Under the pieces are notes generated by a model. That model did no database searches. It had not been told where the DNA came from and saw only the letters and a program-made list of their open reading frames with translations. From Methanopyrus kandleri AV19 (GTDB taxonomy: Archaea > JAADCQ01 > Methanopyri > Methanopyrales > Methanopyraceae), in contig NC_003551.1 in the NCBI RefSeq assembly GCF_000007185.1, forward strand, positions 60,001-92,000: a stretch of 32,000 bases of DNA. Direction: 5' to 3'. Positions 1 to 13,088 of the stretch are shown piece by piece (the first letter of the stretch is position 1; every line of letters starts with the position of its first letter). The position numbers and the translations under genes were made by a program.

Positions 1-720
1 GCGTCATTAGCACCGGACTTCGCCACAGCGGCCTACAACGACCGGTACTCGGACTTGAGGTACGTGGATTACCGGTGGGCCCACGATCCCACGCACGTTT
101 ACGATTACGCATCTGTGATAGTTGAGCGGACGACATCCAGGACGCTTCAGGGGGTCGACGAGAAGGTGGCCCTATGGTGTGCGGAAACGGGTATTGCCAG
201 TCATCTTCTCTTAGACCTTTACACACATGTCAAGACATCGCCGATTAAGGAATGGAGGGAACAAGCCGGCATCAGGACGGTGCTCCAGGAGTTTTACTAC
301 CCATGGCAGGAGAACGCGGTGGAGTTCGCACGTTGGGCACTGGGACGGGCTATTCGGGTGTTCGGTAACCCGGACGAGTTCTGGCGGTACGTAGACGGGG
401 CATGCGCGGTCGCGGAACAGCTCATGGGCGACTACGTCATCAGCGCTTACCTCAGGAGGCTATCGGAACGCTACTTCGGAGATCCCGACTTGCACCTGGC
501 CGACTGGTTGAGATGGTTCTATCGAAATTACGGTTGGGAAGAAAACGCCACGGACGCGTTCATTATCGATGGTGTAAGAATTCCGGCCGATCCGGTGGAA
601 CTTTTGTCGTGGATTAGTCAGTGGGATCCGCGGGTAGTCCCCATGCGGCCACCTCAGTCGGGCGGTGGTGGGTCGTTGCTCTTACCGGTGTTCCCGGTAC
701 CGCCGGTACGCCGGCGCTAG
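1..720 (+). CDS. Hypothetical protein, 5'-truncated by window edge (Trp/Tyr-rich, Gly/Pro-rich tail)
   Basis: Frame 1 is open from nt 1, with no stop before the listed ORF 55..720. Stop is TAG at 718-720. No family motif recognised. Convergent 4-nt overlap (CTAG) with the next gene. Confidence 0.45.
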   Translation, partial: ASLAPDFATAAYNDRYSDLRYVDYRWAHDPTHVYDYASVIVERTTSRTLQGVDEKVALWCAETGIASHLLLDLYTHVKTSPIKEWREQAGIRTVLQEFYYPWQENAVEFARWALGRAIRVFGNPDEFWRYVDGACAVAEQLMGDYVISAYLRRLSERYFGDPDLHLADWLRWFYRNYGWEENATDAFIIDGVRIPADPVELLSWISQWDPRVVPMRPPQSGGGGSLLLPVFPVPPVRRR

Positions 721-1100
721 CCCGGCACCCAGATGTATTTCTTACCGGCCTTGTACACCGCACCGCCGAGCTTCTTCATGTGACCGAGTTGTGCACCACC
801 GCGTTTCGCCCTAGCGACCTCCTTGAACTGCTCCACTTTGAGTCCGGAAGGGGTGCGGTAGATCTTCGTGACGGTAACCTTACCCGTGGTAGTCTTGGTG
901 ATGATAGTGGCCTCCGACGTTTTCGGACTGAGGATCTTGGTGAGACCGTAGCTGGAGGACATGGTGATGATGAACGCTAGGGCGAAAACCATCGCCGCGT
1001 CGAACAGGTTGGCGACACCGGTCAGTGGGTCGTCATCGTTGTCACCGCCGTCCAGGAACCTCCTACGACGCCGTCGTCTCAGATACCGGGGCAACGTCAT
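717..1100 (-). CDS. ExbD/TolR-like single-pass membrane protein (DUF2149-like)
   Basis: 127 aa. Arg-rich N-terminus and one TM segment (GVANLFDAAMVFALAFIITM), with an Asp (codon 1001-999) at the TM entry as in ExbD/TolR/MotB. Beta-rich C-terminal domain of about 75 aa. 4-nt overlap with the upstream ExbB-like gene. DUF2149 resemblance is from memory. Confidence 0.6.
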   Translation of the reverse strand: MTLPRYLRRRRRRRFLDGGDNDDDPLTGVANLFDAAMVFALAFIITMSSSYGLTKILSPKTSEATIITKTTTGKVTVTKIYRTPSGLKVEQFKEVARAKRGGAQLGHMKKLGGAVYKAGKKYIWVPG

Positions 1101-1705
1101 CCCCCGAACTCGCGTTGGAGTATAGTCTCAGCCAGGAATTCGAGATCCGAGACGTCCTTTCGGTACCATCTAGATCTGAACAATGTGATCACGTAACAAG
1201 CTCCAGCGGATGCCAGACCGACTACCGTGGTCGCGAACGCCGTGATCAGAGACGTCGCTAAGCCCGCGATGTTACCTTTAGCCAGCTGCTCCAATCCCGG
1301 TCCCAAGGGGATCAGCGTCCCCATCAGTCCCAACATGGGACCTAGACGCACGACAATCCTCGTCCTACTGACTTTGCTAGCCAGGAAGTTTTCGAGGTTC
1401 TCCAGCTCCTTTTCGACCTTCAAACTGGCCTCGTCCGCCGAATCGGACTTTTCGACGATCTTCTCGACTCTCCTCAGGAACTCCGAGAAGTGGGGAGGAA
1501 GTCGCTTCACGTCCGGAAACTTATCTGCGATCTGTTCGAGATCCTTCCTGGTAAACCTGGGCCGGTAGGCCACCTCACGGAGGAATATAGCCAGCTCCAT
1601 CAGAGAGTAAGCCAAGAACAGCAGCAACAGTACTATCGTCGGGTAAAACAACAGCTCCATTACCACGTACAGAGCCTGAGTTATCGCCGTCGCGATGCTA
1701 ACCAT
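1097..1705 (-). CDS. MotA/TolQ/ExbB-family proton channel protein
   Basis: 202 aa with three hydrophobic segments. The C-terminal half carries the family signature RLGPMLGLMGTLIPLGPGL ... LITAFATTVVGLASAGACYV. Long charged helical loop between TM1 and TM2. Confidence 0.75.
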   Translation of the reverse strand: MVSIATAITQALYVVMELLFYPTIVLLLLFLAYSLMELAIFLREVAYRPRFTRKDLEQIADKFPDVKRLPPHFSEFLRRVEKIVEKSDSADEASLKVEKELENLENFLASKVSRTRIVVRLGPMLGLMGTLIPLGPGLEQLAKGNIAGLATSLITAFATTVVGLASAGACYVITLFRSRWYRKDVSDLEFLAETILQREFGG

Positions 1706-2895
1706 TCGATCACCGCCCTGATGATATCGTCGATCGGGTTATCCGGTGGGTAGTTTCCTCGTGAAGCCTTGCGCACCGCCCATAGGTACCCGAACGCCAT
1801 CAAAGCCAGGAACAGTAACGCCCATGGGCCTATTTTCGAAGGGCTCGGAAGGGCCAGCTTGAGTTTAGGTGCTCGCTTCCATAACGGATAGGCCCACGCG
1901 ATAATCCCCGTGATCACGAAAAGGAGTCCTACTAAGTTCTCGAGGCCACTAAGGGCCACGGCCGGGGGAACTTTGAGGACCTCGATAACCGCATCGGCGA
2001 CGATCAAGGTGGCGTACGCCGTCGAAACGAAGCAAGTCCAGAGTACCAAGGCGGCTTGGGTGACGTTAAGGGCGCCTATCTCGGCGTACATGGCGATCGA
2101 TAGGGCCACTCCGGTCAGGCAGATCGGACACGGAACGGCCACGACGAATGCTCCTAGCTTAGAGAGATCCTTCGCTGAACCTTCTACCGCCCACTTACGG
2201 GCTATGAATATTCCCAATCCGATGAGAAACAACCCCAGCAAGGCGTGACCGAGGAGAGCGTACCTCTGCATGGCGAGCGCCGTTTTCATGAACTTGGAAA
2301 CCAGGTGACTCAGGCCTATTATCGCCGGTATTAGTATCCCGGAAAGCGCTGCGATAACCATCGCCCCACGACGTAACTGGAAGCCCGCGAACCCTATTCC
2401 TAACCCCGTCTTCAACCCCACGATGAACACGAAGAACGCTATCGCAAGCGCGTAGATCGGGTTATCGGCGAAGGCCGGAACGATCATCCACGAGGTCAGC
2501 GCGGCTACGATCACCGAAGATGTCACGGCGAGGAGGGTGACTATTTTGAAGGGTGATACGCCGAGATCACGTGAGATGCGATAAGATGGATACACCAGAG
2601 CGACGGAGGACGCCGCGATAGCCCCGGCGGTCACGTCGAGAAGGCCGACGAGGAGGGCGACTCCGGAAAGCGCTGTCCCTTCCAACACGGTGCGAATGAC
2701 CTCACGGCGCTTTTTACGGGCCCCTAACACGCGTGTCAGCATTACCCCTGTGCCGACTCCGATGGCGGCCGCGGCCATCCCGTAAACGGCCCCGTAGGTT
2801 AGGGCTTCCGACACACCGACGGAGTGGTACCTGAGCATTAGTGCCGCGCTGGCACCTAGATAGGTGGTGAAGGCCGCGATCACACCGTGGAACAC
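1681..2895 (-). CDS. Polytopic membrane protein, putative transporter (DUF2162-like) with intramembrane CPxC motif
   Basis: 404 aa with about 10-12 hydrophobic segments. VPCPIC motif (Cys codons 2130-2128 and 2121-2119). Overlaps the downstream ExbB-like gene by 25 nt. DUF2162 assignment is from memory, unverified. Confidence 0.6.
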   Translation of the reverse strand: MFHGVIAAFTTYLGASAALMLRYHSVGVSEALTYGAVYGMAAAAIGVGTGVMLTRVLGARKKRREVIRTVLEGTALSGVALLVGLLDVTAGAIAASSVALVYPSYRISRDLGVSPFKIVTLLAVTSSVIVAALTSWMIVPAFADNPIYALAIAFFVFIVGLKTGLGIGFAGFQLRRGAMVIAALSGILIPAIIGLSHLVSKFMKTALAMQRYALLGHALLGLFLIGLGIFIARKWAVEGSAKDLSKLGAFVVAVPCPICLTGVALSIAMYAEIGALNVTQAALVLWTCFVSTAYATLIVADAVIEVLKVPPAVALSGLENLVGLLFVITGIIAWAYPLWKRAPKLKLALPSPSKIGPWALLFLALMAFGYLWAVRKASRGNYPPDNPIDDIIRAVIEWLASRRR

Positions 2896-2909
2896 CCGTC
2901 ATTCCCCCG

Positions 2910-3566
2910 TCAGGGGCCGAATGCGCCGACCAGAGGGAATAGGATGTTAAACGGAGGTAAGTAAAGTAAGTTTTCTGACAACTCATAGTACTTGAACTTA
3001 GGCAGCTTCGAAGTGATCTCCTGAACCAGCCACCGCTTCCGTTCAGTGAGCGTCCGCAGTACCGGAGTTAAAGCATCGATTTCGCGCAGGTCGTCCGTGA
3101 CCCCGGGCGCACGCTTCTCAACACGGTCTTCGGCACGGTGTAGCGCTGAAAGAGCCCGCGAGACGTTCCTCTCAGCTCGATCGAGACCGGTAACACCTTT
3201 CGCCCTCGCCTTCCGGATTTTCAGCCGAGCGAGCTCGAGTTTGTGCTCAGCACTGCGGATAGCGGAAAGCAACTCCAACCGGTCTCGTCCCGGATCATTC
3301 CCAACACGGAGCGTGTTATCGTACAAGGCAGCCTTGTAGGCCAAATACGGCGATGAGGCGAGTACGGTAGCAACATCTTTAGTAGCTCCGTCGATGTCAC
3401 TAACAGCGGACTGTAGTCTCTCCATGCGGAGATACTTCTGGAATCGGTGGTCGAACGATCCATGAACGAGTGCCGGGGATATCACGAGGGTGGCCACGAG
3501 CGCTGCTGTCACCTTCCATCGCAACGCCGCTACCCCTCGTGTTACCCCGTGGCTGCCACGTAACAA
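2910..3566 (-). CDS. Secreted or membrane-anchored helical (coiled-coil-like) protein
   Basis: 218-aa ORF. Signal-peptide-like N-terminus (RWKVTAALVATLVISPALVHG/S), charged Arg/Glu/Leu-rich helical body and hydrophobic C-terminus (LLYLPPFNILFPLVGAFGP). An alternative TTG start at 3524 gives a cleaner MRWK signal peptide. 14-nt gap to the next gene. Confidence 0.5.
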   Translation of the reverse strand: MLRGSHGVTRGVAALRWKVTAALVATLVISPALVHGSFDHRFQKYLRMERLQSAVSDIDGATKDVATVLASSPYLAYKAALYDNTLRVGNDPGRDRLELLSAIRSAEHKLELARLKIRKARAKGVTGLDRAERNVSRALSALHRAEDRVEKRAPGVTDDLREIDALTPVLRTLTERKRWLVQEITSKLPKFKYYELSENLLYLPPFNILFPLVGAFGP

Positions 3567-3567
3567 G

Positions 3568-3580
3568 CTATAATCGTTTT
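3568..3580 (-). promoter_or_regulatory. Candidate BRE/TATA element (minus strand AAAACGATTATAGC)
   Basis: The only A/T-rich patch in the 25-nt gap between the small ORF and the 218-aa gene. It lies about 47 nt upstream of the alternative TTG start at 3524, with GAGGGGT (SD-like) in between. Confidence 0.3.
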
Positions 3581-3591
3581 GCGGTATCGGG

Positions 3592-3867
3592 TTATGTGTG
3601 GGCGTGGACGTAGATCCAGCTGTTGTTACCCTCGTCGGTGTGCTCAGTCACGGTGTAGCCGACGGTCCCGTAATACAGGGCCGTGAGTAACTTACCGACT
3701 TTCCGCTCGACTCGATCTCCCTCGTCTAGGATGTGCTCGTCGTCGAAAAGCACGTCAAACCACAGGAGGAGCTCGTCGTAAGCCACTGTCTGAGCGTACT
3801 CGCCCATTCCCAGGAACAACCGCCCGTCTTGGAACATTTCCGTTACTATCTCGCCTATCCTACTCAC
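3592..3867 (-). CDS. Small acidic hypothetical protein
   Basis: 91-aa ORF. Its GTG start overlaps the helicase TGA stop (GTGA). An alternative ATG lies at residue 11. No motif recognised. Confidence 0.45.
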   Translation of the reverse strand: MSRIGEIVTEMFQDGRLFLGMGEYAQTVAYDELLLWFDVLFDDEHILDEGDRVERKVGKLLTALYYGTVGYTVTEHTDEGNNSWIYVHAHT

Positions 3868-6137
3868 CCCCTGGCACGTCCGGGTGCTAAGCGGACCAGG
3901 TCTAAGTAGGAAGCCACTTCGCGCAGATTGTTCGGCTTTATCAGTGCGCCGCTTCTCTTGACGTGCTCAATGAACCTGCGGTACGTCGGATGGCTGGAAA
4001 GCGTGCCGGAATCTCCGATACAAATGAGTTTCCGCCTAGGCCTGGTGATCGCGACGTTCAGTCTCCTCATGTCCCTTAGGAACCCTACTTCACCCTTAGG
4101 ATTGCTTCGGACGAAGGACACGATCACGGCTTCCTTCTCTCGACCCTGGAACCCGTCGACTGTGTTCACCTCGACGTCGCCGAGCCCGAGTTCGTCGAGG
4201 GACTTCGAAATCAGGTCCACTTGGTCGTCGTACGGACTGATCACGGCTAGATCCTCCTGAGACAACCCCTGCCGAACCAGTTGTTCCGACAGAAAGGCGA
4301 CTATCGCGGCTTCCATCGGATTTTCACGGGATTTGGATCCGGGACGGCGTCGCTCCCTCCGCAAACGCTCGGGTAAGCGCGAGGTGTCCACGAACCCCAG
4401 CGGCTCCTTGGGGTGTAGGACGTCAGCCCAGGGTCTGCCGACTTCGGGATCGCCGACACCTAAGTCCTCGAGCGTGTGACGACGGACGCTCGAGTGGGCC
4501 TCGAGCTTCCCGTTGTAAAACTCTCGGTTCGGGAATTCCATGATGTTCTCGTGCATCCTGTACTGCACTCTCAGCATCCTGGAGAGCTTCGGGTGCTTTT
4601 CGATCAAACGCTCGAAGAGCGTGCGAGAGAGCTCCGGCTGGGCCTCTTCACTGAGGATGGTCGGGGGCAACTGCTTGTGATCCCCGGCCATGATGAACCT
4701 CTTGGCCCGAGAGATCGGAATGAGCGCTGAAGGTTCCGTGGCTTGCGATCCTTCGTCGACTACGGCGACGTCGAACTCGATATCTTCGAGGAACTCCAGC
4801 CCTGCACTGGCGTTCGTAGTGACCACGACTTCAGCCTCCTCTAGTACTTCCCGGACGGCACGCTCTTCCAGTCGCTCCGCCTCCTCGAAGAGTTTCTGGA
4901 CTTTCCTGTTGATGTGGATCCACTTAGCCATGCTCTGAATTACGCGTGGTGGGACCCCGCGGGCTCCCTTGCCTTCCCTCGCAAGGTAGAGTATGGTCTC
5001 GTCGGACATCCCCCGACGCCACCTCGGCACCGGGCGCTGGTACCGGTCACGCTTCTCGATGAGCCTGTAAGCGCGCTCCCGGAGACGCTCCGCCTTCCTG
5101 TACAGTGGGTGGTTTTCCACGATCGCGCTAAGTGTCCGCTCCTTCAGTTTCTTGGAGACACGGGCCGGATGTCCGACCCTAACGGCCTCCACACCACGCT
5201 CTACCAGATATTCCAGGATGTTGTCCGCTGCGACGTTGGACTCGGCCGTCGCGAGGACCTTGTTACCACGCCGGACCTCTTGAACGATCACCTCGGTGAT
5301 TGTCCGGGTCTTACCAGTACCCGGAGGGCCGTGAATTAGGAAGAAATCCGGCGCCCCTAGTGCGTGTTCTACGGCCTCCCGTTGGGAATAGTTGAGGTCA
5401 GTATCGACGAAGTCCACGTCTATAGGCTCCGCGTCGCTCGGATTCTTAAGTCCGATGATCGTGTTCCTGAGTTCTCGGAGTCTACCCTCAGCGTGTCTGA
5501 TCCGTTCTAGCGCCTCCATCATACGCTGGAAAGTTACATCGTTAGCGTATAGGTCGATCCTGATCCCCTTACCCACGGCCCACTTGGGTGGAGGACTGTC
5601 GAAAGCCACCGTAATCGAGCGCTTGGTCTTCTCCACGACGGTTCCCGTGAGATCGCTCTTCAGTGGATCGCCGCGACTCACGAGGACCAGATCGCCCACG
5701 GATATTTGCGTATCTATCTCTTTAGACCGGCCGTACTTCACCAGGTAGTAACCTCCGACCTCCCGACCTGCCCTCGTACCGCGCAGACCGAGTACTGCCC
5801 TCCCCTTCTTTTCACGCTCCTTGCCTGAGAGTTTCCTGATTTCCTCTTCCATCGCCTTCATCTCGGCTTCCCGCTCCAGCTGGACTAGCCTCTGGAACCT
5901 CTTGACGTAGGCGTCTACTACCTTGATCTCCTCCGATTCCTCCCTCGTAGGCTCCCTCACGTCAGCATGTCTTAGGAGACGCTGAGCCGCACGAGGCTCG
6001 ACTCGGCACAGCGCGGCTCGGTTGGCCAGCCAGATTTTACCGACTTCGTGGGGCCTCACACCGCGTGAGAATAGCGTATCCAGAACGTCTTTCGGAGAGT
6101 CCCCCGGACTAAACCCTTCGATCAACACTTCCTTCAT
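3864..6137 (-). CDS. Superfamily I DNA/RNA helicase, Upf1/IGHMBP2(Smubp-2)/Hcs1-like
   Basis: Walker A LIHGPPGTGKTRTI, motif II VVDEGSQATE, and VDGFQGREKEAVIVSFVRSN, which is typical of the Upf1-like AAA_11/AAA_12 architecture. N-terminal beta-barrel-like region as in IGHMBP2. The ORF track extends to 6227. I prefer ATG 6137, which is preceded by GAGGGTG plus a 5-nt spacer and avoids overlap with the divergent gene. Confidence 0.9.
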   Translation of the reverse strand: MKEVLIEGFSPGDSPKDVLDTLFSRGVRPHEVGKIWLANRAALCRVEPRAAQRLLRHADVREPTREESEEIKVVDAYVKRFQRLVQLEREAEMKAMEEEIRKLSGKEREKKGRAVLGLRGTRAGREVGGYYLVKYGRSKEIDTQISVGDLVLVSRGDPLKSDLTGTVVEKTKRSITVAFDSPPPKWAVGKGIRIDLYANDVTFQRMMEALERIRHAEGRLRELRNTIIGLKNPSDAEPIDVDFVDTDLNYSQREAVEHALGAPDFFLIHGPPGTGKTRTITEVIVQEVRRGNKVLATAESNVAADNILEYLVERGVEAVRVGHPARVSKKLKERTLSAIVENHPLYRKAERLRERAYRLIEKRDRYQRPVPRWRRGMSDETILYLAREGKGARGVPPRVIQSMAKWIHINRKVQKLFEEAERLEERAVREVLEEAEVVVTTNASAGLEFLEDIEFDVAVVDEGSQATEPSALIPISRAKRFIMAGDHKQLPPTILSEEAQPELSRTLFERLIEKHPKLSRMLRVQYRMHENIMEFPNREFYNGKLEAHSSVRRHTLEDLGVGDPEVGRPWADVLHPKEPLGFVDTSRLPERLRRERRRPGSKSRENPMEAAIVAFLSEQLVRQGLSQEDLAVISPYDDQVDLISKSLDELGLGDVEVNTVDGFQGREKEAVIVSFVRSNPKGEVGFLRDMRRLNVAITRPRRKLICIGDSGTLSSHPTYRRFIEHVKRSGALIKPNNLREVASYLDLVRLAPGRARG

Positions 6138-6183
6138 GGTTACACCCTCGGTGGACACTACATCCTCAGGGGGGCACCGTCCA

Positions 6184-6945
6184 GTGAGACCGTTTCTGAG
6201 CCGGCTGCGCGCCCTTATCTCGTACATAAAGAAAACGTACGATCGCGTTGCGGTAGCCTACTCCGGAGGTACTGATAGCTCGGTACTCCTGTACGCTGCT
6301 GTCAAGGCGTTAGGACGGAAAAACGTGGTCGCCTGCACGGCGTGTTTGCCGTACGTAGTGAACGTGTGTCCACCGACTCCTATGGATGTGAAGCAAATCA
6401 GGATCCGCCCCGACGTGGAGGATGTCCTCCGAGAGGGTAGAGACGAACACCCGTGTTACCTGTGCAAGCGGGCAATTTACGAAGCGATACACGAAACCAT
6501 CGGAGGTGTGGATGGAGTGCTGGACGGTACCAACGTCTCGGAATTAACCAGGGGCCGCCCTGGCCTCCGAGCGTTGTACGAACTCGACGTTGACGTCCCG
6601 ATGATCAAGTGTGGACTCGGTGATCAGACAACGTCCGTGCTCGCCGCCTACCTGAACCTCCGAGCACGCTCCGGAGCGTGCTCACTCGTACTGTCTCCGG
6701 AGTGGCCCGACGTCGAAGTGAACGACCCAGGAAAGCTGAACCGGACAGCCCGACTGCGCAAGCCACAGTCGGAAAGGTGGTCCCTTTCGGAGTGTCTGGA
6801 GTTCACGATCCATGCGCCGTTACCCGAAAGACGAAGGGAGAGATACGAGTGTGTCCGTCGAGGGGACGCGCTAGTGTTCCGAGTACTGAGTGGAAAAGTC
6901 ACCGAAGCCTTAGCTTCGTACTTCCGAGAGTGCTGGAACGTGTAA
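6184..6945 (+). CDS. PP-loop ATP pyrophosphatase, LarE-like (ATP-utilising enzyme of the PP-loop superfamily)
   Basis: VAVAYSGGTDSSVLL PP-loop (SGGxDS), HPCYLCKRAIY motif and LDGTN. The listed ORF starts at 6022 but that part is antisense to the helicase. In-frame GTG 6184 leaves a typical helix of about 24 aa before the PP-loop. Confidence 0.75.
   Translation: MRPFLSRLRALISYIKKTYDRVAVAYSGGTDSSVLLYAAVKALGRKNVVACTACLPYVVNVCPPTPMDVKQIRIRPDVEDVLREGRDEHPCYLCKRAIYEAIHETIGGVDGVLDGTNVSELTRGRPGLRALYELDVDVPMIKCGLGDQTTSVLAAYLNLRARSGACSLVLSPEWPDVEVNDPGKLNRTARLRKPQSERWSLSECLEFTIHAPLPERRRERYECVRRGDALVFRVLSGKVTEALASYFRECWNV
6223..6236 (-). promoter_or_regulatory. Candidate TATA-like element (minus strand GTTTTCTTTATGTA) upstream of the helicase
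   Basis: A/T-rich patch that contains the ATG at 6227 heading the longest helicase ORF. This suggests that ATG is promoter sequence rather than a start. The leader to ATG 6137 would be about 65 nt. Confidence 0.25.
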
Positions 6946-10933: not shown

Positions 10934-11757
10934 TCGACATTTCGTCCCTGTCATGGGCCGTAGCGCTCGGAGTAGTTCGAGGTCTCTACGTGTTCGCGGG
11001 ATCGTTCATCGCGGCGGCCGTCTACCGGTACGTGGCGGAGGAGAGGATCCGAATGACGACCTCCGCCTTCATGGGTCTTTTAACCGCCGGGTTCGCGGCC
11101 GGCCCCAAAGAACTCACGGCACTCACGTACCAAAATCCGAACGTGGAGATGATCGCGTGGGCTATCGCCACCTTGTTCGCGATACCCGCCAGGACCTACG
11201 GGGACGCTATCGGTGAGAGGATTCTCCGGGCGAGGATACGAGCATCGATGAACCCCAGAACTAAGGTTTACAGGCTCCCCGAGAACCCCAACGAGATCAA
11301 GGATATCCCCGGAGAACCACCCGCGCCCATGGAGGTCAAAGAACGGATCGCGGGACGCGAGTACGAGTTCCCTCGAGGCACTCCTAAGGAGGAAGTTGAG
11401 CGAGTGATCAAGCGAGATTTGGAGAGCGAGACCGGGATAGGTCGCGCCGTAGTCCGCGTGCGAAACGGCGACGTCGAGGTACTCGTAGCGGGTGCGAAGC
11501 CCCCGGTCTCGCACACGCTCCCTCCGGACAAGGTCGCCGTTTCCGTGGAACCACTAGGCGGCGCCATCCACATCGGAGAGGGAGATCGTGTACGTGTGTT
11601 CGTGGACGGTCGCGAGCTGGGTGAAGCGGAGGTATGGCGGCGGGTAGATGATCGGGTAGTATTGGTGATGGAAGAACGCACTGCCGAAGAGCTGCTGAAG
11701 GAGATCACTCAAGGCAAGCAGGTGTCCCTTATGGCGGTGAGAGGGGAGGGAAGTTGA
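10930..11757 (+). CDS. Membrane protein (3 N-terminal TM segments) with soluble C-terminal domain
   Basis: 275 aa. TTG start overlaps the upstream TGA (TTGA). Hydrophobic segments are at residues about 8-32, 45-60 and 72-90. The remainder is charged and soluble. No family recognised. Confidence 0.5.
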   Translation: MIDISSLSWAVALGVVRGLYVFAGSFIAAAVYRYVAEERIRMTTSAFMGLLTAGFAAGPKELTALTYQNPNVEMIAWAIATLFAIPARTYGDAIGERILRARIRASMNPRTKVYRLPENPNEIKDIPGEPPAPMEVKERIAGREYEFPRGTPKEEVERVIKRDLESETGIGRAVVRVRNGDVEVLVAGAKPPVSHTLPPDKVAVSVEPLGGAIHIGEGDRVRVFVDGRELGEAEVWRRVDDRVVLVMEERTAEELLKEITQGKQVSLMAVRGEGS

Positions 11758-13088
11758 AGCGTGAGCGCGTTCGGATCGAGGGAGGCTCGATCAGGGTAGA
11801 CGGACCGTCCCGGGCGCGAGTAATTCGAGGTGAAGCGACCACGAACAAAGGTACCGAAGTGAGTGAAGGCGAAGAACTCGTGATCAGGCGTGGGGAGCGA
11901 CTGACGCTCACCACCGACTCGGAGCTCGAGCTGGAGCTAGTCCTGGGAACCGGTGCCGGCTACTCGGTCGAAGAGGACGGCGTCGAAATACCATCGGACT
12001 GGAAAGAGTTGGCCGAGGAGCTGGCCGATCACGGTGGAACGCCGGTTTGCATGGTGATCGGTCCTCAGGACTCCGGCAAGACGACGCTAGTTACCTTCAT
12101 CGCCAACGAGCTCGTGGAGCGCGGGCTCAAGGTAGGTATCGTCGACGCCGATGTAGGGCAGTCGGATGTCGGGCCTCCGGCGGTCGTCTCCTTAGGTATC
12201 GTCGAGGATACCGTCCACGACCTCTCCGAGGTAGAGATGAGACACGGGTACTTCGTCGGGTCGATCACCCCATCGGGTCACCTACTCCAGACCACCGTAG
12301 GGACTCGAAGGATGGTAGACCTCGCACTAGCTGAAGGGACGGATGTCGTGCTCATCGATACCTCGGGGATGGTTCACGGCGGACCTGCTAGAGCCCTTAA
12401 ACTCCACAAGGTCGATGCGATCAGACCCTCACACGTGGCGTTCCTGGACCGTGACGGTCAGGTGTCACACATCAAGCGTATGGTGAAGTCCTTGAAGTAC
12501 ATTAAGGTGCACGACCTCGCGGTGCCTGATGCCGTGAAGGACGTCGAACGGAAGGACCGTATTCGACGTAGAGAGCGCGTACTGCGCGAGTTCTTCGAGG
12601 AACGGGAGATCCTGGAGCTCGACCTGGAGGAAGTCTCCGTACAGCGGGCGTTTATAGGAACGGGTGAGCCGGTGGACTTGGAGGAGGAGAGTGAACTATC
12701 CGCACTGATCAAAGCGGTATCCGGTGTCGAACCCGAGATATTGCACGCGGAGAGAGCACCGGATGCCGTTGTTTTGGTCGTTAAAGACCAAGCCGGTCGA
12801 ATCGTGGGACGCGGCGGCCGACATGCCCGAGAGCTTAGGCGGCTGCTTAACGTCCGAGAGTTCGTCGTAGTCAACGAGGAGGAACTTCAGGGAGTGCTGG
12901 TAGGACTGTGTGACGGGGCCGGTGACCTGCTCGGTATCGGCGTGATTCGAGAGATCGACTTCGCCTCCGGAGAACTGAAAGTCGAGGGCAGGTTACTCCG
13001 CGACAGGACGATTCGCGTCGTTCAGCTGGGCTCGCTTAAAGTGGACCCGGAGACAGGGTCTCACGAGCCTATGAACGTACGAGTTTGA
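11754..13088 (+). CDS. Clp1/Grc3-type P-loop polynucleotide 5'-hydroxyl kinase homologue
   Basis: 444 aa. MVIGPQDSGKTTLVTFIANELVERGLKVGIVDADVGQSDVGPP matches the Clp1 Walker A plus DxDxGQ clasp region. N-terminal beta-sandwich-like and C-terminal domains have Clp1 proportions. TTGA overlap with the upstream gene. Confidence 0.8.
   Translation: MKRERVRIEGGSIRVDGPSRARVIRGEATTNKGTEVSEGEELVIRRGERLTLTTDSELELELVLGTGAGYSVEEDGVEIPSDWKELAEELADHGGTPVCMVIGPQDSGKTTLVTFIANELVERGLKVGIVDADVGQSDVGPPAVVSLGIVEDTVHDLSEVEMRHGYFVGSITPSGHLLQTTVGTRRMVDLALAEGTDVVLIDTSGMVHGGPARALKLHKVDAIRPSHVAFLDRDGQVSHIKRMVKSLKYIKVHDLAVPDAVKDVERKDRIRRRERVLREFFEEREILELDLEEVSVQRAFIGTGEPVDLEEESELSALIKAVSGVEPEILHAERAPDAVVLVVKDQAGRIVGRGGRHARELRRLLNVREFVVVNEEELQGVLVGLCDGAGDLLGIGVIREIDFASGELKVEGRLLRDRTIRVVQLGSLKVDPETGSHEPMNVRV

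Follow-up and report, generated by a model that had tools for sequence, protein, structure and literature searches.

An ExbB-like, DUF2149 and DUF2162 membrane module in Methanopyrus kandleri, related to trios that stand beside predicted surface CobN/HmuS-family proteins

What work would a proton-driven, stator-like pair of membrane proteins perform in an archaeon, where its genes stand beside neither an outer-membrane receptor nor a flagellum? The question is raised by a cluster of four minus-strand genes in Methanopyrus kandleri AV19, located at 717-3566 of a 32,000-nucleotide (nt) stretch of contig NC_003551.1 (positions 60,001 to 92,000), which is called the window here and to which all coordinates without a locus label refer. 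The genes, named A to D in the order of transcription, are tightly packed: in the list of open reading frames (ORFs), A and B are 14 nt apart, B and C share 25 nt, and C and D share 4 nt, exactly as described in an earlier sequence-only reading of the window, which proposed an ExbB/ExbD-type motor pair for metal uptake or extraction. Gene B (1681-2895, 404 amino acids, aa) encodes a DUF2162 "predicted transporter", gene C (1097-1705, 202 aa) a member of the MotA/TolQ/ExbB family, and gene D (717-1100, 127 aa, or 125 aa in public gene calls) a DUF2149 protein, and the three together are the archaeal form of a widespread three-gene membrane module, which is partly known as HmuU/HmuV in Bacteroidota and as PA1924/PA1925 in Pseudomonas. 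Gene A (2910-3524) encodes a predicted secreted or membrane-tethered helical protein specific to Methanopyri. The favoured reading, to which a probability of roughly one half is given, is that a stator-like pair driven by the proton-motive force and a thiolate-lined permease serve an extracytoplasmic partner that extracts metal.

The gene C product matches the Pfam family PF01618 (MotA_ExbB) with E=2.3e-11 and 44 bits, against a curated cut-off of 22.9, and a profile built from 12 sequences of its clade matches solved ExbB over the transmembrane segments TM1-TM3 (E=4.5e-5), as well as MotA and TolQ, so its assignment to this family stands. Single-sequence searches of the PDB with the ExbB-like and DUF2149 proteins gave nothing useful, and only the clade profile worked for ExbB. 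By hydropathy, the protein has a predicted TM1, a charged cytoplasmic loop, TM2 and TM3, and it carries the motifs P-x-x-G-L-M-G-T-L-I-P-x-G, which includes Thr130, and A-F-x-T-T-V-x-G-L, which includes Thr159 and Thr160. The motifs bearing Thr130 and Thr160 are invariant in 83-85 of 87 aligned homologues, and in an alignment with E. coli ExbB and TolQ these two residues fall on the threonines of TM2 and TM3. Genes C and D overlap, as is often the case for stator pairs such as ExbB-ExbD, TolQ-TolR and MotA-MotB; unlike those stators, the Methanopyrus pair is accompanied by no TonB, TolA, peptidoglycan-binding domain, outer-membrane receptor or flagellum. Neither Plug nor TonB_dep_Rec has a match among the scanned window ORFs, and within these scans the absence of an outer-membrane, TonB or flagellar context is confirmed.

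The gene D product matches PF09919 (DUF2149) with E=1.1e-16 and 61.4 bits, against a curated cut-off of 27.1. It has a poly-Arg cytoplasmic N-terminus, a single TM segment with Asp34 and a small ectodomain predicted to be all-beta, and its AlphaFold2 (AF2) model shows a TM helix at 25-50 followed by six strands and no helix, with a mean predicted local distance difference test score of 58. The motif G-V-A-N-[LV]-F-D with the TM Asp is found in all 80 DUF2149 ORFs compared (74 distinct sequences), from archaea to Prevotella, so the residue singled out earlier as placed like the protonatable Asp of ExbD, TolR and MotB is conserved. The predicted layout, with a basic cytoplasmic N-terminus, a single TM segment and an Asp near its cytoplasmic end, is like that of ExbD and TolR. 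DUF2149 thus resembles a working ExbD on paper, and the ExbD label applies to it by analogy only.

The gene B product matches PF09930 (DUF2162) with E=9.6e-47 and 159.7 bits, against a curated cut-off of 34.4, over residues 149-373 only, and it shares 91% identity with a Methanopyrus sp. protein annotated as "DUF2162 domain-containing". It has about 9-10 predicted TM segments, and the DUF2162 core is preceded by an additional N-terminal membrane domain of about 148 aa, which is confined to Methanopyri and has no weak relatives in 90 loci. The sequence V-P-C-P-I-C at residues 254-259 lies in the middle of a TM segment predicted by hydropathy, and P255-C256-P257-x-C259 is invariant among 15 DUF2162 sequences down to about 20% identity, which were gathered without reference to this motif; K162, W235 and D243 are near-invariant. 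The AF2 model places a helix break at 254-256, with low confidence. The predicted intramembrane position of the motif was as first described, and the conservation asked of it in orthologues holds; its interpretation as the CPx-type signature of metal-translocating proteins is not supported: DUF2162 is the sole family detected, there are no P-type ATPase domains around the motif, and the motif is no evidence for membership in the CPx P1B-ATPases. The likeness to these ATPases and to DsbD/CcdA consists of a mid-helix, Cys-Pro-containing intramembrane motif and goes no further than this short motif, since DUF2162 lacks ATPase domains and is related to them neither in sequence nor in fold. The Methanopyrus protein is divergent, with just 12 matches among 1.84 billion representatives in an exhaustive search; a word-indexed search with the DUF2162 alignment was saturated by hydrophobic words and added only fusions to TPR domains.

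The association of these three genes was examined in a genome scan seeded on DUF2162, which yielded 80 loci, nearly all from Methanosarcinales or anaerobic methanotrophic archaea (ANME) because the scan pattern was narrow; neighbouring families were assigned with locally built hidden Markov models (HMMs). DUF2162 is followed by the ExbB-like and then the DUF2149 gene in 68 of the 68 loci with room for them, which bears out the earlier statement that the trio recurs in methanogens. The principal neighbour had not been anticipated: a CobN-family ORF lies at most 3 kb away in 42 of the 48 loci having at least 3 kb on both sides. These ORFs often occur as 2-4 tandem copies, with a median length of 1638 aa and a maximum of 2485 aa, and in them a complete CobN/Mg-chelatase domain is combined with surface domains of the PKD, Ig and CarboxypepD_reg types. 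A signal-like N-terminus is present in 63 of 65, and where the ORF is complete its C-terminus is a TM segment with a basic tail, so the CobN partners are predicted to be extracytoplasmic, surface-exposed and tethered to the membrane. Metal regulators, about which the sequence-only reading had asked, were found in part of the census: 16 Methanosarcinales loci have a divergent ArsR-family (HTH_5) gene ahead of the trio, at a distance of about 1 kb upstream of DUF2162 (for example L089:1806-2444), and so does the stand-alone Methanofrustulum locus L080 (9039-9569, minus strand). Compared with that of Methanopyrus, these Methanosarcinales and ANME clusters have the same trio order and invariant motifs at 28-39% identity, with 1-4 giant surface CobN genes after the trio and often a divergent ArsR gene before it, whereas Methanopyrus has the DUF2162 extension and a preceding protein A. 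The Methanopyrus trio is about equidistant from CobN-linked and stand-alone trios, and it is an orthologue-level relative of the CobN-linked ones whose partner is not adjacent.

Several features of the archaeal loci are recorded here in their own right. Tandem arrays of giant CobN genes lie downstream of the trio in L020, L021, L023, L057, L058 and other Methanosarcinales loci. Some CobN genes are divided into adjacent ORFs (L023, L046, L048), which could result from in-frame UAG/pyrrolysine read-through or from assembly gaps; such read-through has been proposed for one Methanosarcina CobN homologue (PMC1242214). The ArsR regulator of L080 carries a fused DUF4430 domain. The ANME-1 Methanophagaceae locus L090 (6540-9630, plus strand, and 11756-12775, minus strand) has a stand-alone trio with no CobN flank, and its flanking genes encode secreted cohesin, dockerin and PD40 (TolB-like beta-propeller repeat) proteins. 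DUF4430 is presumably a transcobalamin-like, corrinoid-binding fold, and the fusion in L080 hints at sensing of corrinoids or tetrapyrroles.

The bacterial arrangements, which come from look-ups seeded on DUF2149, extend the linkage to CobN. The gene order is receptor, DUF2162, ExbB-like, DUF2149, CobN and CbiK in Desulfobacca; receptor / ExbB-like, DUF2149 and CobN in Methylosinus; NikR, kinase, NicO, receptor, ExbB-like, DUF2149, CobN and receptor in a metagenome contig; and receptor, CbiK, CobN, HmuT, ExbB-like, DUF2149 and receptor in Prevotella. A groundwater assembly (GCA_000821205.1, L095:1044-9474) has a DtxR-type repressor, an N-terminal fragment of FeoB, a CobN with a CLIPPER domain, a TPR-DUF2162 protein, and the ExbB-like and DUF2149 genes. 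The fusion of DUF2162 to an N-terminal TPR/SNAP-like domain, seen in L095, is also found in P0018 and P0019, and DUF2162 occurs in Desulfotomaculales as well. Outside the Methanosarcinales scan, CobN is adjacent in five of six ExbB-like/DUF2149 contexts (L009-L012 and L095), the sixth being the Methanopyri locus. What is common to at least six distant lineages is thus the ExbB-like/DUF2149 pair beside an extracytoplasmic CobN/HmuS-family protein with metal-responsive control, and DUF2162 is an addition to the pair in archaea and some bacteria.

Published work on two of these bacterial systems links them to metal limitation. The haem-uptake operon hmu of Bacteroidota, among them Porphyromonas, Bacteroides and Prevotella, encodes HmuY, HmuR, HmuS (CobN-like), HmuT, HmuU (ExbB family) and HmuV (DUF2149) (PMC10434189), and hmuSTUV is induced 8-30x under iron or haem starvation (PMC11681262). 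In Pseudomonas aeruginosa, PA1922-25 encode a receptor, a CobN-like protein, an ExbB/D-family protein and a DUF2149 protein (PA1925), belong to the Zur regulon and are induced 45-150x on Zn depletion (PMC4542158, PMC9431628). As in Methanopyrus, the ExbB-family gene directly precedes a DUF2149 gene with G-V-A-N-L-F-D in both (PMC10434189, PMC9431628); unlike in Methanopyrus, a CobN/HmuS gene is adjacent and a TonB-dependent receptor is present, and protein A has no bacterial counterpart. Bacteroidota HmuT, considered as a cryptic DUF2162, was rejected, as the two proteins are unrelated. HmuS is described as a haem de-chelatase anchored by terminal helices, whose activity in lysates requires the membrane fraction and NADH and does not need ATP; its authors depict HmuU/V as powering the outer-membrane receptor and leave the archaeal HmuS homologues unexplained (PMC12583661). 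In reviews (PMC12094164) and in a study of 2026 (PMC13227078), HmuT/U/V are still described as uncharacterised. In the methanogen Methanothermobacter marburgensis, CobN1 rises about 300x under Ni limitation, the "Predicted transporter protein" MTBMA_c10530 about 35-fold and c10580 about 300-fold, an uncharacterised neighbour of MTBMA_c10530 goes from undetected to detected, and MTBMA_c10530, c10540 and c10580 adjoin the chelatase-like genes c10550-70 (PMC12350162); by the wording of its annotation, which is the one that DUF2162 proteins usually receive, MTBMA_c10530 is a candidate DUF2162 protein. The idea of metal uptake or extraction fits these expression data and the metal regulators found near the pair elsewhere (NikR, ArsR and DtxR).

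The mechanism that would join these elements begins with the ExbB-like protein C, which may form a pentameric channel around a dimer of DUF2149 protein D. DUF2149 would be moved by protons passing through the invariant TM Asp34, which would face a ring of Thr130 and Thr160, and its small ectodomain would hand the work to a partner beyond the membrane. For most lineages this partner would be a class I (de)chelatase of the CobN/HmuS family that bears a signal peptide and is anchored at its C-terminus. It would capture metal or strip it from a chelate or tetrapyrrole, and DUF2162, with two intramembrane thiolates at a helix break, would then import a soft metal ion (Ni, Co, Zn or Fe2+). The candidate local adaptor of Methanopyrus is protein A, possibly acting with a CobN-like protein whose gene lies at another place in the genome. 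The class I chelatases of the cytoplasm depend on AAA+ ATPases, which an enzyme outside the membrane cannot use, and a proton-driven stator-like pair is favoured for this reason. The powering of TonB-dependent receptors cannot be the common function, because the module occurs in archaea and in Desulfotomaculales, which have no outer membrane. The more specific proposal, that an ExbB-family motor of the 5:2 type with DUF2149 as a non-homologous replacement of ExbD energises extracytoplasmic class I chelatases in place of the ChlI/ChlD or CobS/CobT AAA+ ATPases, is tentative and falls well short of an even chance.

A number of results weigh against the favoured reading, and several of them concern the motor itself. 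The gene D product has no Pfam match to ExbD (PF02472) at E<=1, a DUF2149 profile of 23 sequences matched none of the ExbD/TolR/MotB chains in the PDB, and the predicted all-beta ectodomain, from a poor model, is unlike that of ExbD. The hhalign program sets Asp34 of gene D on Asp25 of ExbD, at 0.7% probability. Of the ExbD-type assignment in the sequence-only reading, the topology and placement of the Asp hold and homology to ExbD, TolR or MotB is not supported. In addition, ExbB Glu176 is not conserved in gene C, and no relationship of DUF2162 to any known transporter is detectable by sequence or fold. As for the partner, the window has no CobN-Mg_chel match and no ORF longer than 787 aa, none of the other Methanopyri loci has CobN at a distance of 10 kb or less (no search covered the remainder of the genome), and neither a metal regulator among the window ORFs nor a riboswitch in Rfam was found near the Methanopyrus operon. 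Six other archaeal trios stand alone without CobN, DUF2162 is missing from several bacterial clusters, and the census was itself seeded on DUF2162; its 42 of 48 CobN-linked loci are not 42 independent events, since most come from one order. Finally, no experiment exists on HmuT/U/V or on any archaeal trio (PMC13227078).

The trios without CobN, found in five lineages including Methanopyrus, would be in keeping with a model in which the ExbB-like/DUF2149 pair drove or gated DUF2162 itself for the import of a bulky metal chelate, such as a corrinoid, a haem-like tetrapyrrole or a nickelophore, and CobN-like proteins (protein A in Methanopyrus) only captured the substrate without mechanical input. 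The constant position of the pair directly after DUF2162, often with overlapping genes, agrees with such an importer, as does the ArsR-DUF4430 fusion of L080 on the corrinoid-binding fold assumed above, and reviews suggest that HmuTUV carry haem or iron across the inner membrane (PMC12094164). However, several bacterial clusters have the pair and CobN without DUF2162 or another permease, the DUF2162 core of about 225 aa and 6-7 TM segments is small for a tetrapyrrole pore, and a 5:2 stator driving a permease of the same membrane has no known precedent. A self-contained importer is judged unlikely.

The invariant, proline-flanked C-x-x-C in the middle of the membrane may also be read in terms of redox chemistry instead of metal transport. 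DUF2162 would then be a thiol-disulfide relay like DsbD/CcdA, passing cytoplasmic reducing equivalents to the CobN/HmuS-type enzyme or to its metal or tetrapyrrole substrate, and the ExbB-like/DUF2149 pair would still supply conformational energy. The requirement of haem de-chelation by HmuS for NADH and membranes, and not for ATP, is in line with this idea (PMC12583661), but it comes from Bacteroidota, which have the unrelated HmuT in place of DUF2162. Moreover, DUF2162 has no sequence or fold relationship to DsbD/CcdA or to any other family, its two Cys residues lie in one helix and not in two pseudo-symmetric halves, and K162 and D243, both near-invariant, would be just as much at home in an ion path. 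A redox conduit is considered rather improbable. Least probable, at long odds, is a system unrelated to metals in which the pair and protein A tether or remodel the pseudomurein wall that Methanopyrus possesses, or an S-layer, as TolQRA does in bacteria: protein A is predicted to be secreted and shares with TolA domain II its charge and helix-compatible composition, and cohesin/dockerin and PD40 surface proteins flank the trio of ANME-1, but such a system leaves no room for the invariant DUF2162 with its thiolate motif, for the linkage to CobN or for the metal regulators, protein A matches no TolA, TonB or Pal family, and no TolB or Pal equivalents are present among the window ORFs scanned.

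Under the favoured reading, protein A is the sole candidate that the Methanopyrus locus offers for the missing adjacent partner. A signal-like N-terminus (M-RWK-VTAALVATLVISPALVHG) leads into a charged body, and the hydrophobic C-terminus, which contains proline, is conserved. By composition and hydropathy the protein is charged and helix-compatible, and the coiled coil first ascribed to it is putative. Its length is 203-214 aa across Methanopyri gene calls, and conserved blocks in the alignment lie at 54-86 and 178-196, the C-terminal one being K-x-Y-E..E-N-x-L..P-P-x-N. No Cys or His is conserved, and on these features the protein looks more like an adaptor than a metal binder. It belongs to no family in Pfam, NCBIfam or PADLOC; no relatives outside Methanopyri were found by HMM or phmmer, and no weak relatives in the 90 loci. 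Protein A had been proposed as the force transducer of the system, and its confinement to Methanopyri means that it cannot be a general component of the module.

The start of gene A was revised. Public gene calls place it at TTG 3524 (204 aa), against position 3566 (218 aa) in the sequence-only reading, and the former is preferred because a Shine-Dalgarno-like GAGGGG at 3533-3538 precedes 3524 by 8 nt and a TATA-like ATTATA at 3569-3574 abuts 3566. The intergenic region 3525-3591 (minus strand), with this TATA-like box and ribosome-binding motif, is therefore a candidate archaeal promoter by the general archaeal promoter consensus. A riboswitch, for which a search of the upstream region had been recommended, is rejected as the means of control, as Rfam has no element there.

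In all Methanopyri contigs the genes keep the fixed order helicase, 91-aa ORF, A, DUF2162, ExbB-like and DUF2149, with identities of 38% for A, 47% for DUF2162 and 74% for DUF2149 in the most distant pair. The operon arrangement is not due to chance, as it recurs at DUF2162 identities down to 47%; since Methanopyri synteny is conserved over more than 20 kb, the recurring order alone is no proof of functional linkage. Upstream of the operon, the 91-aa acidic ORF without a family (3592-3867, minus strand) overlaps by 4 nt the stop codon of a superfamily 1 (SF1) Upf1-like helicase with AAA_11/AAA_12 domains (3864-6227, minus strand), which matches the PADLOC model of Mokosh MkoA with E=8e-102. 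This pair is probably housekeeping and not a defence island, because it is syntenic in all Methanopyri loci. The four operon proteins have no match to Zorya (ZorA/ZorB) or to any other PADLOC system, and a defence role of the operon was rejected on these grounds. At the other end, a convergent ORF without a family (55-720, plus strand), conserved at this place in all Methanopyri loci, shares 4 nt with the DUF2149 gene at the latter's 3' end; in public gene calls it has 270 aa and runs past the left end of the window. The rest of the window (8133-31475) is housekeeping and includes genes for NadA, TatD, a CLP1-type P-loop protein, DUF1464, prephenate dehydratase, subunits of 2-oxoacid:ferredoxin oxidoreductase, fumarase, IMP cyclohydrolase, NFACT, a CBS protein, an RLI/ABCE1-like protein, Thg1 and a carbamoyltransferase. 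Genes for metal or tetrapyrrole functions are absent from it, and the possibility that a chelatase or a metal gene lies in another part of the window was rejected, as none is found among the scanned ORFs.

The occurrence of the ExbB-like/DUF2149 pair in archaea and in monoderm bacteria indicates that it cannot exist solely for TonB-dependent receptors, which is the role now drawn for HmuU/V. This bears on the part played by HmuT/U/V in the haem system of gut and oral Bacteroidota, still called unknown in papers of 2025-2026, on the energising of membrane-anchored extracytoplasmic CobN/HmuS-type enzymes without ATP, and on the purpose of the many archaeal CobN homologues. If the more specific proposal on the energising of extracytoplasmic chelatases is true, this motor class would have a new mechanical output, the first in archaea, the archaeal CobN/HmuS homologues would be explained as surface machines for metal extraction, and protein A of Methanopyrus would be a new lineage-specific adaptor. 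If the favoured reading holds, the 5:2 motors would gain a new class of output, and methanogens would take up Ni, Co or Fe by a proton-driven machine at the cell surface, which would be relevant for methane production under trace-metal limitation.

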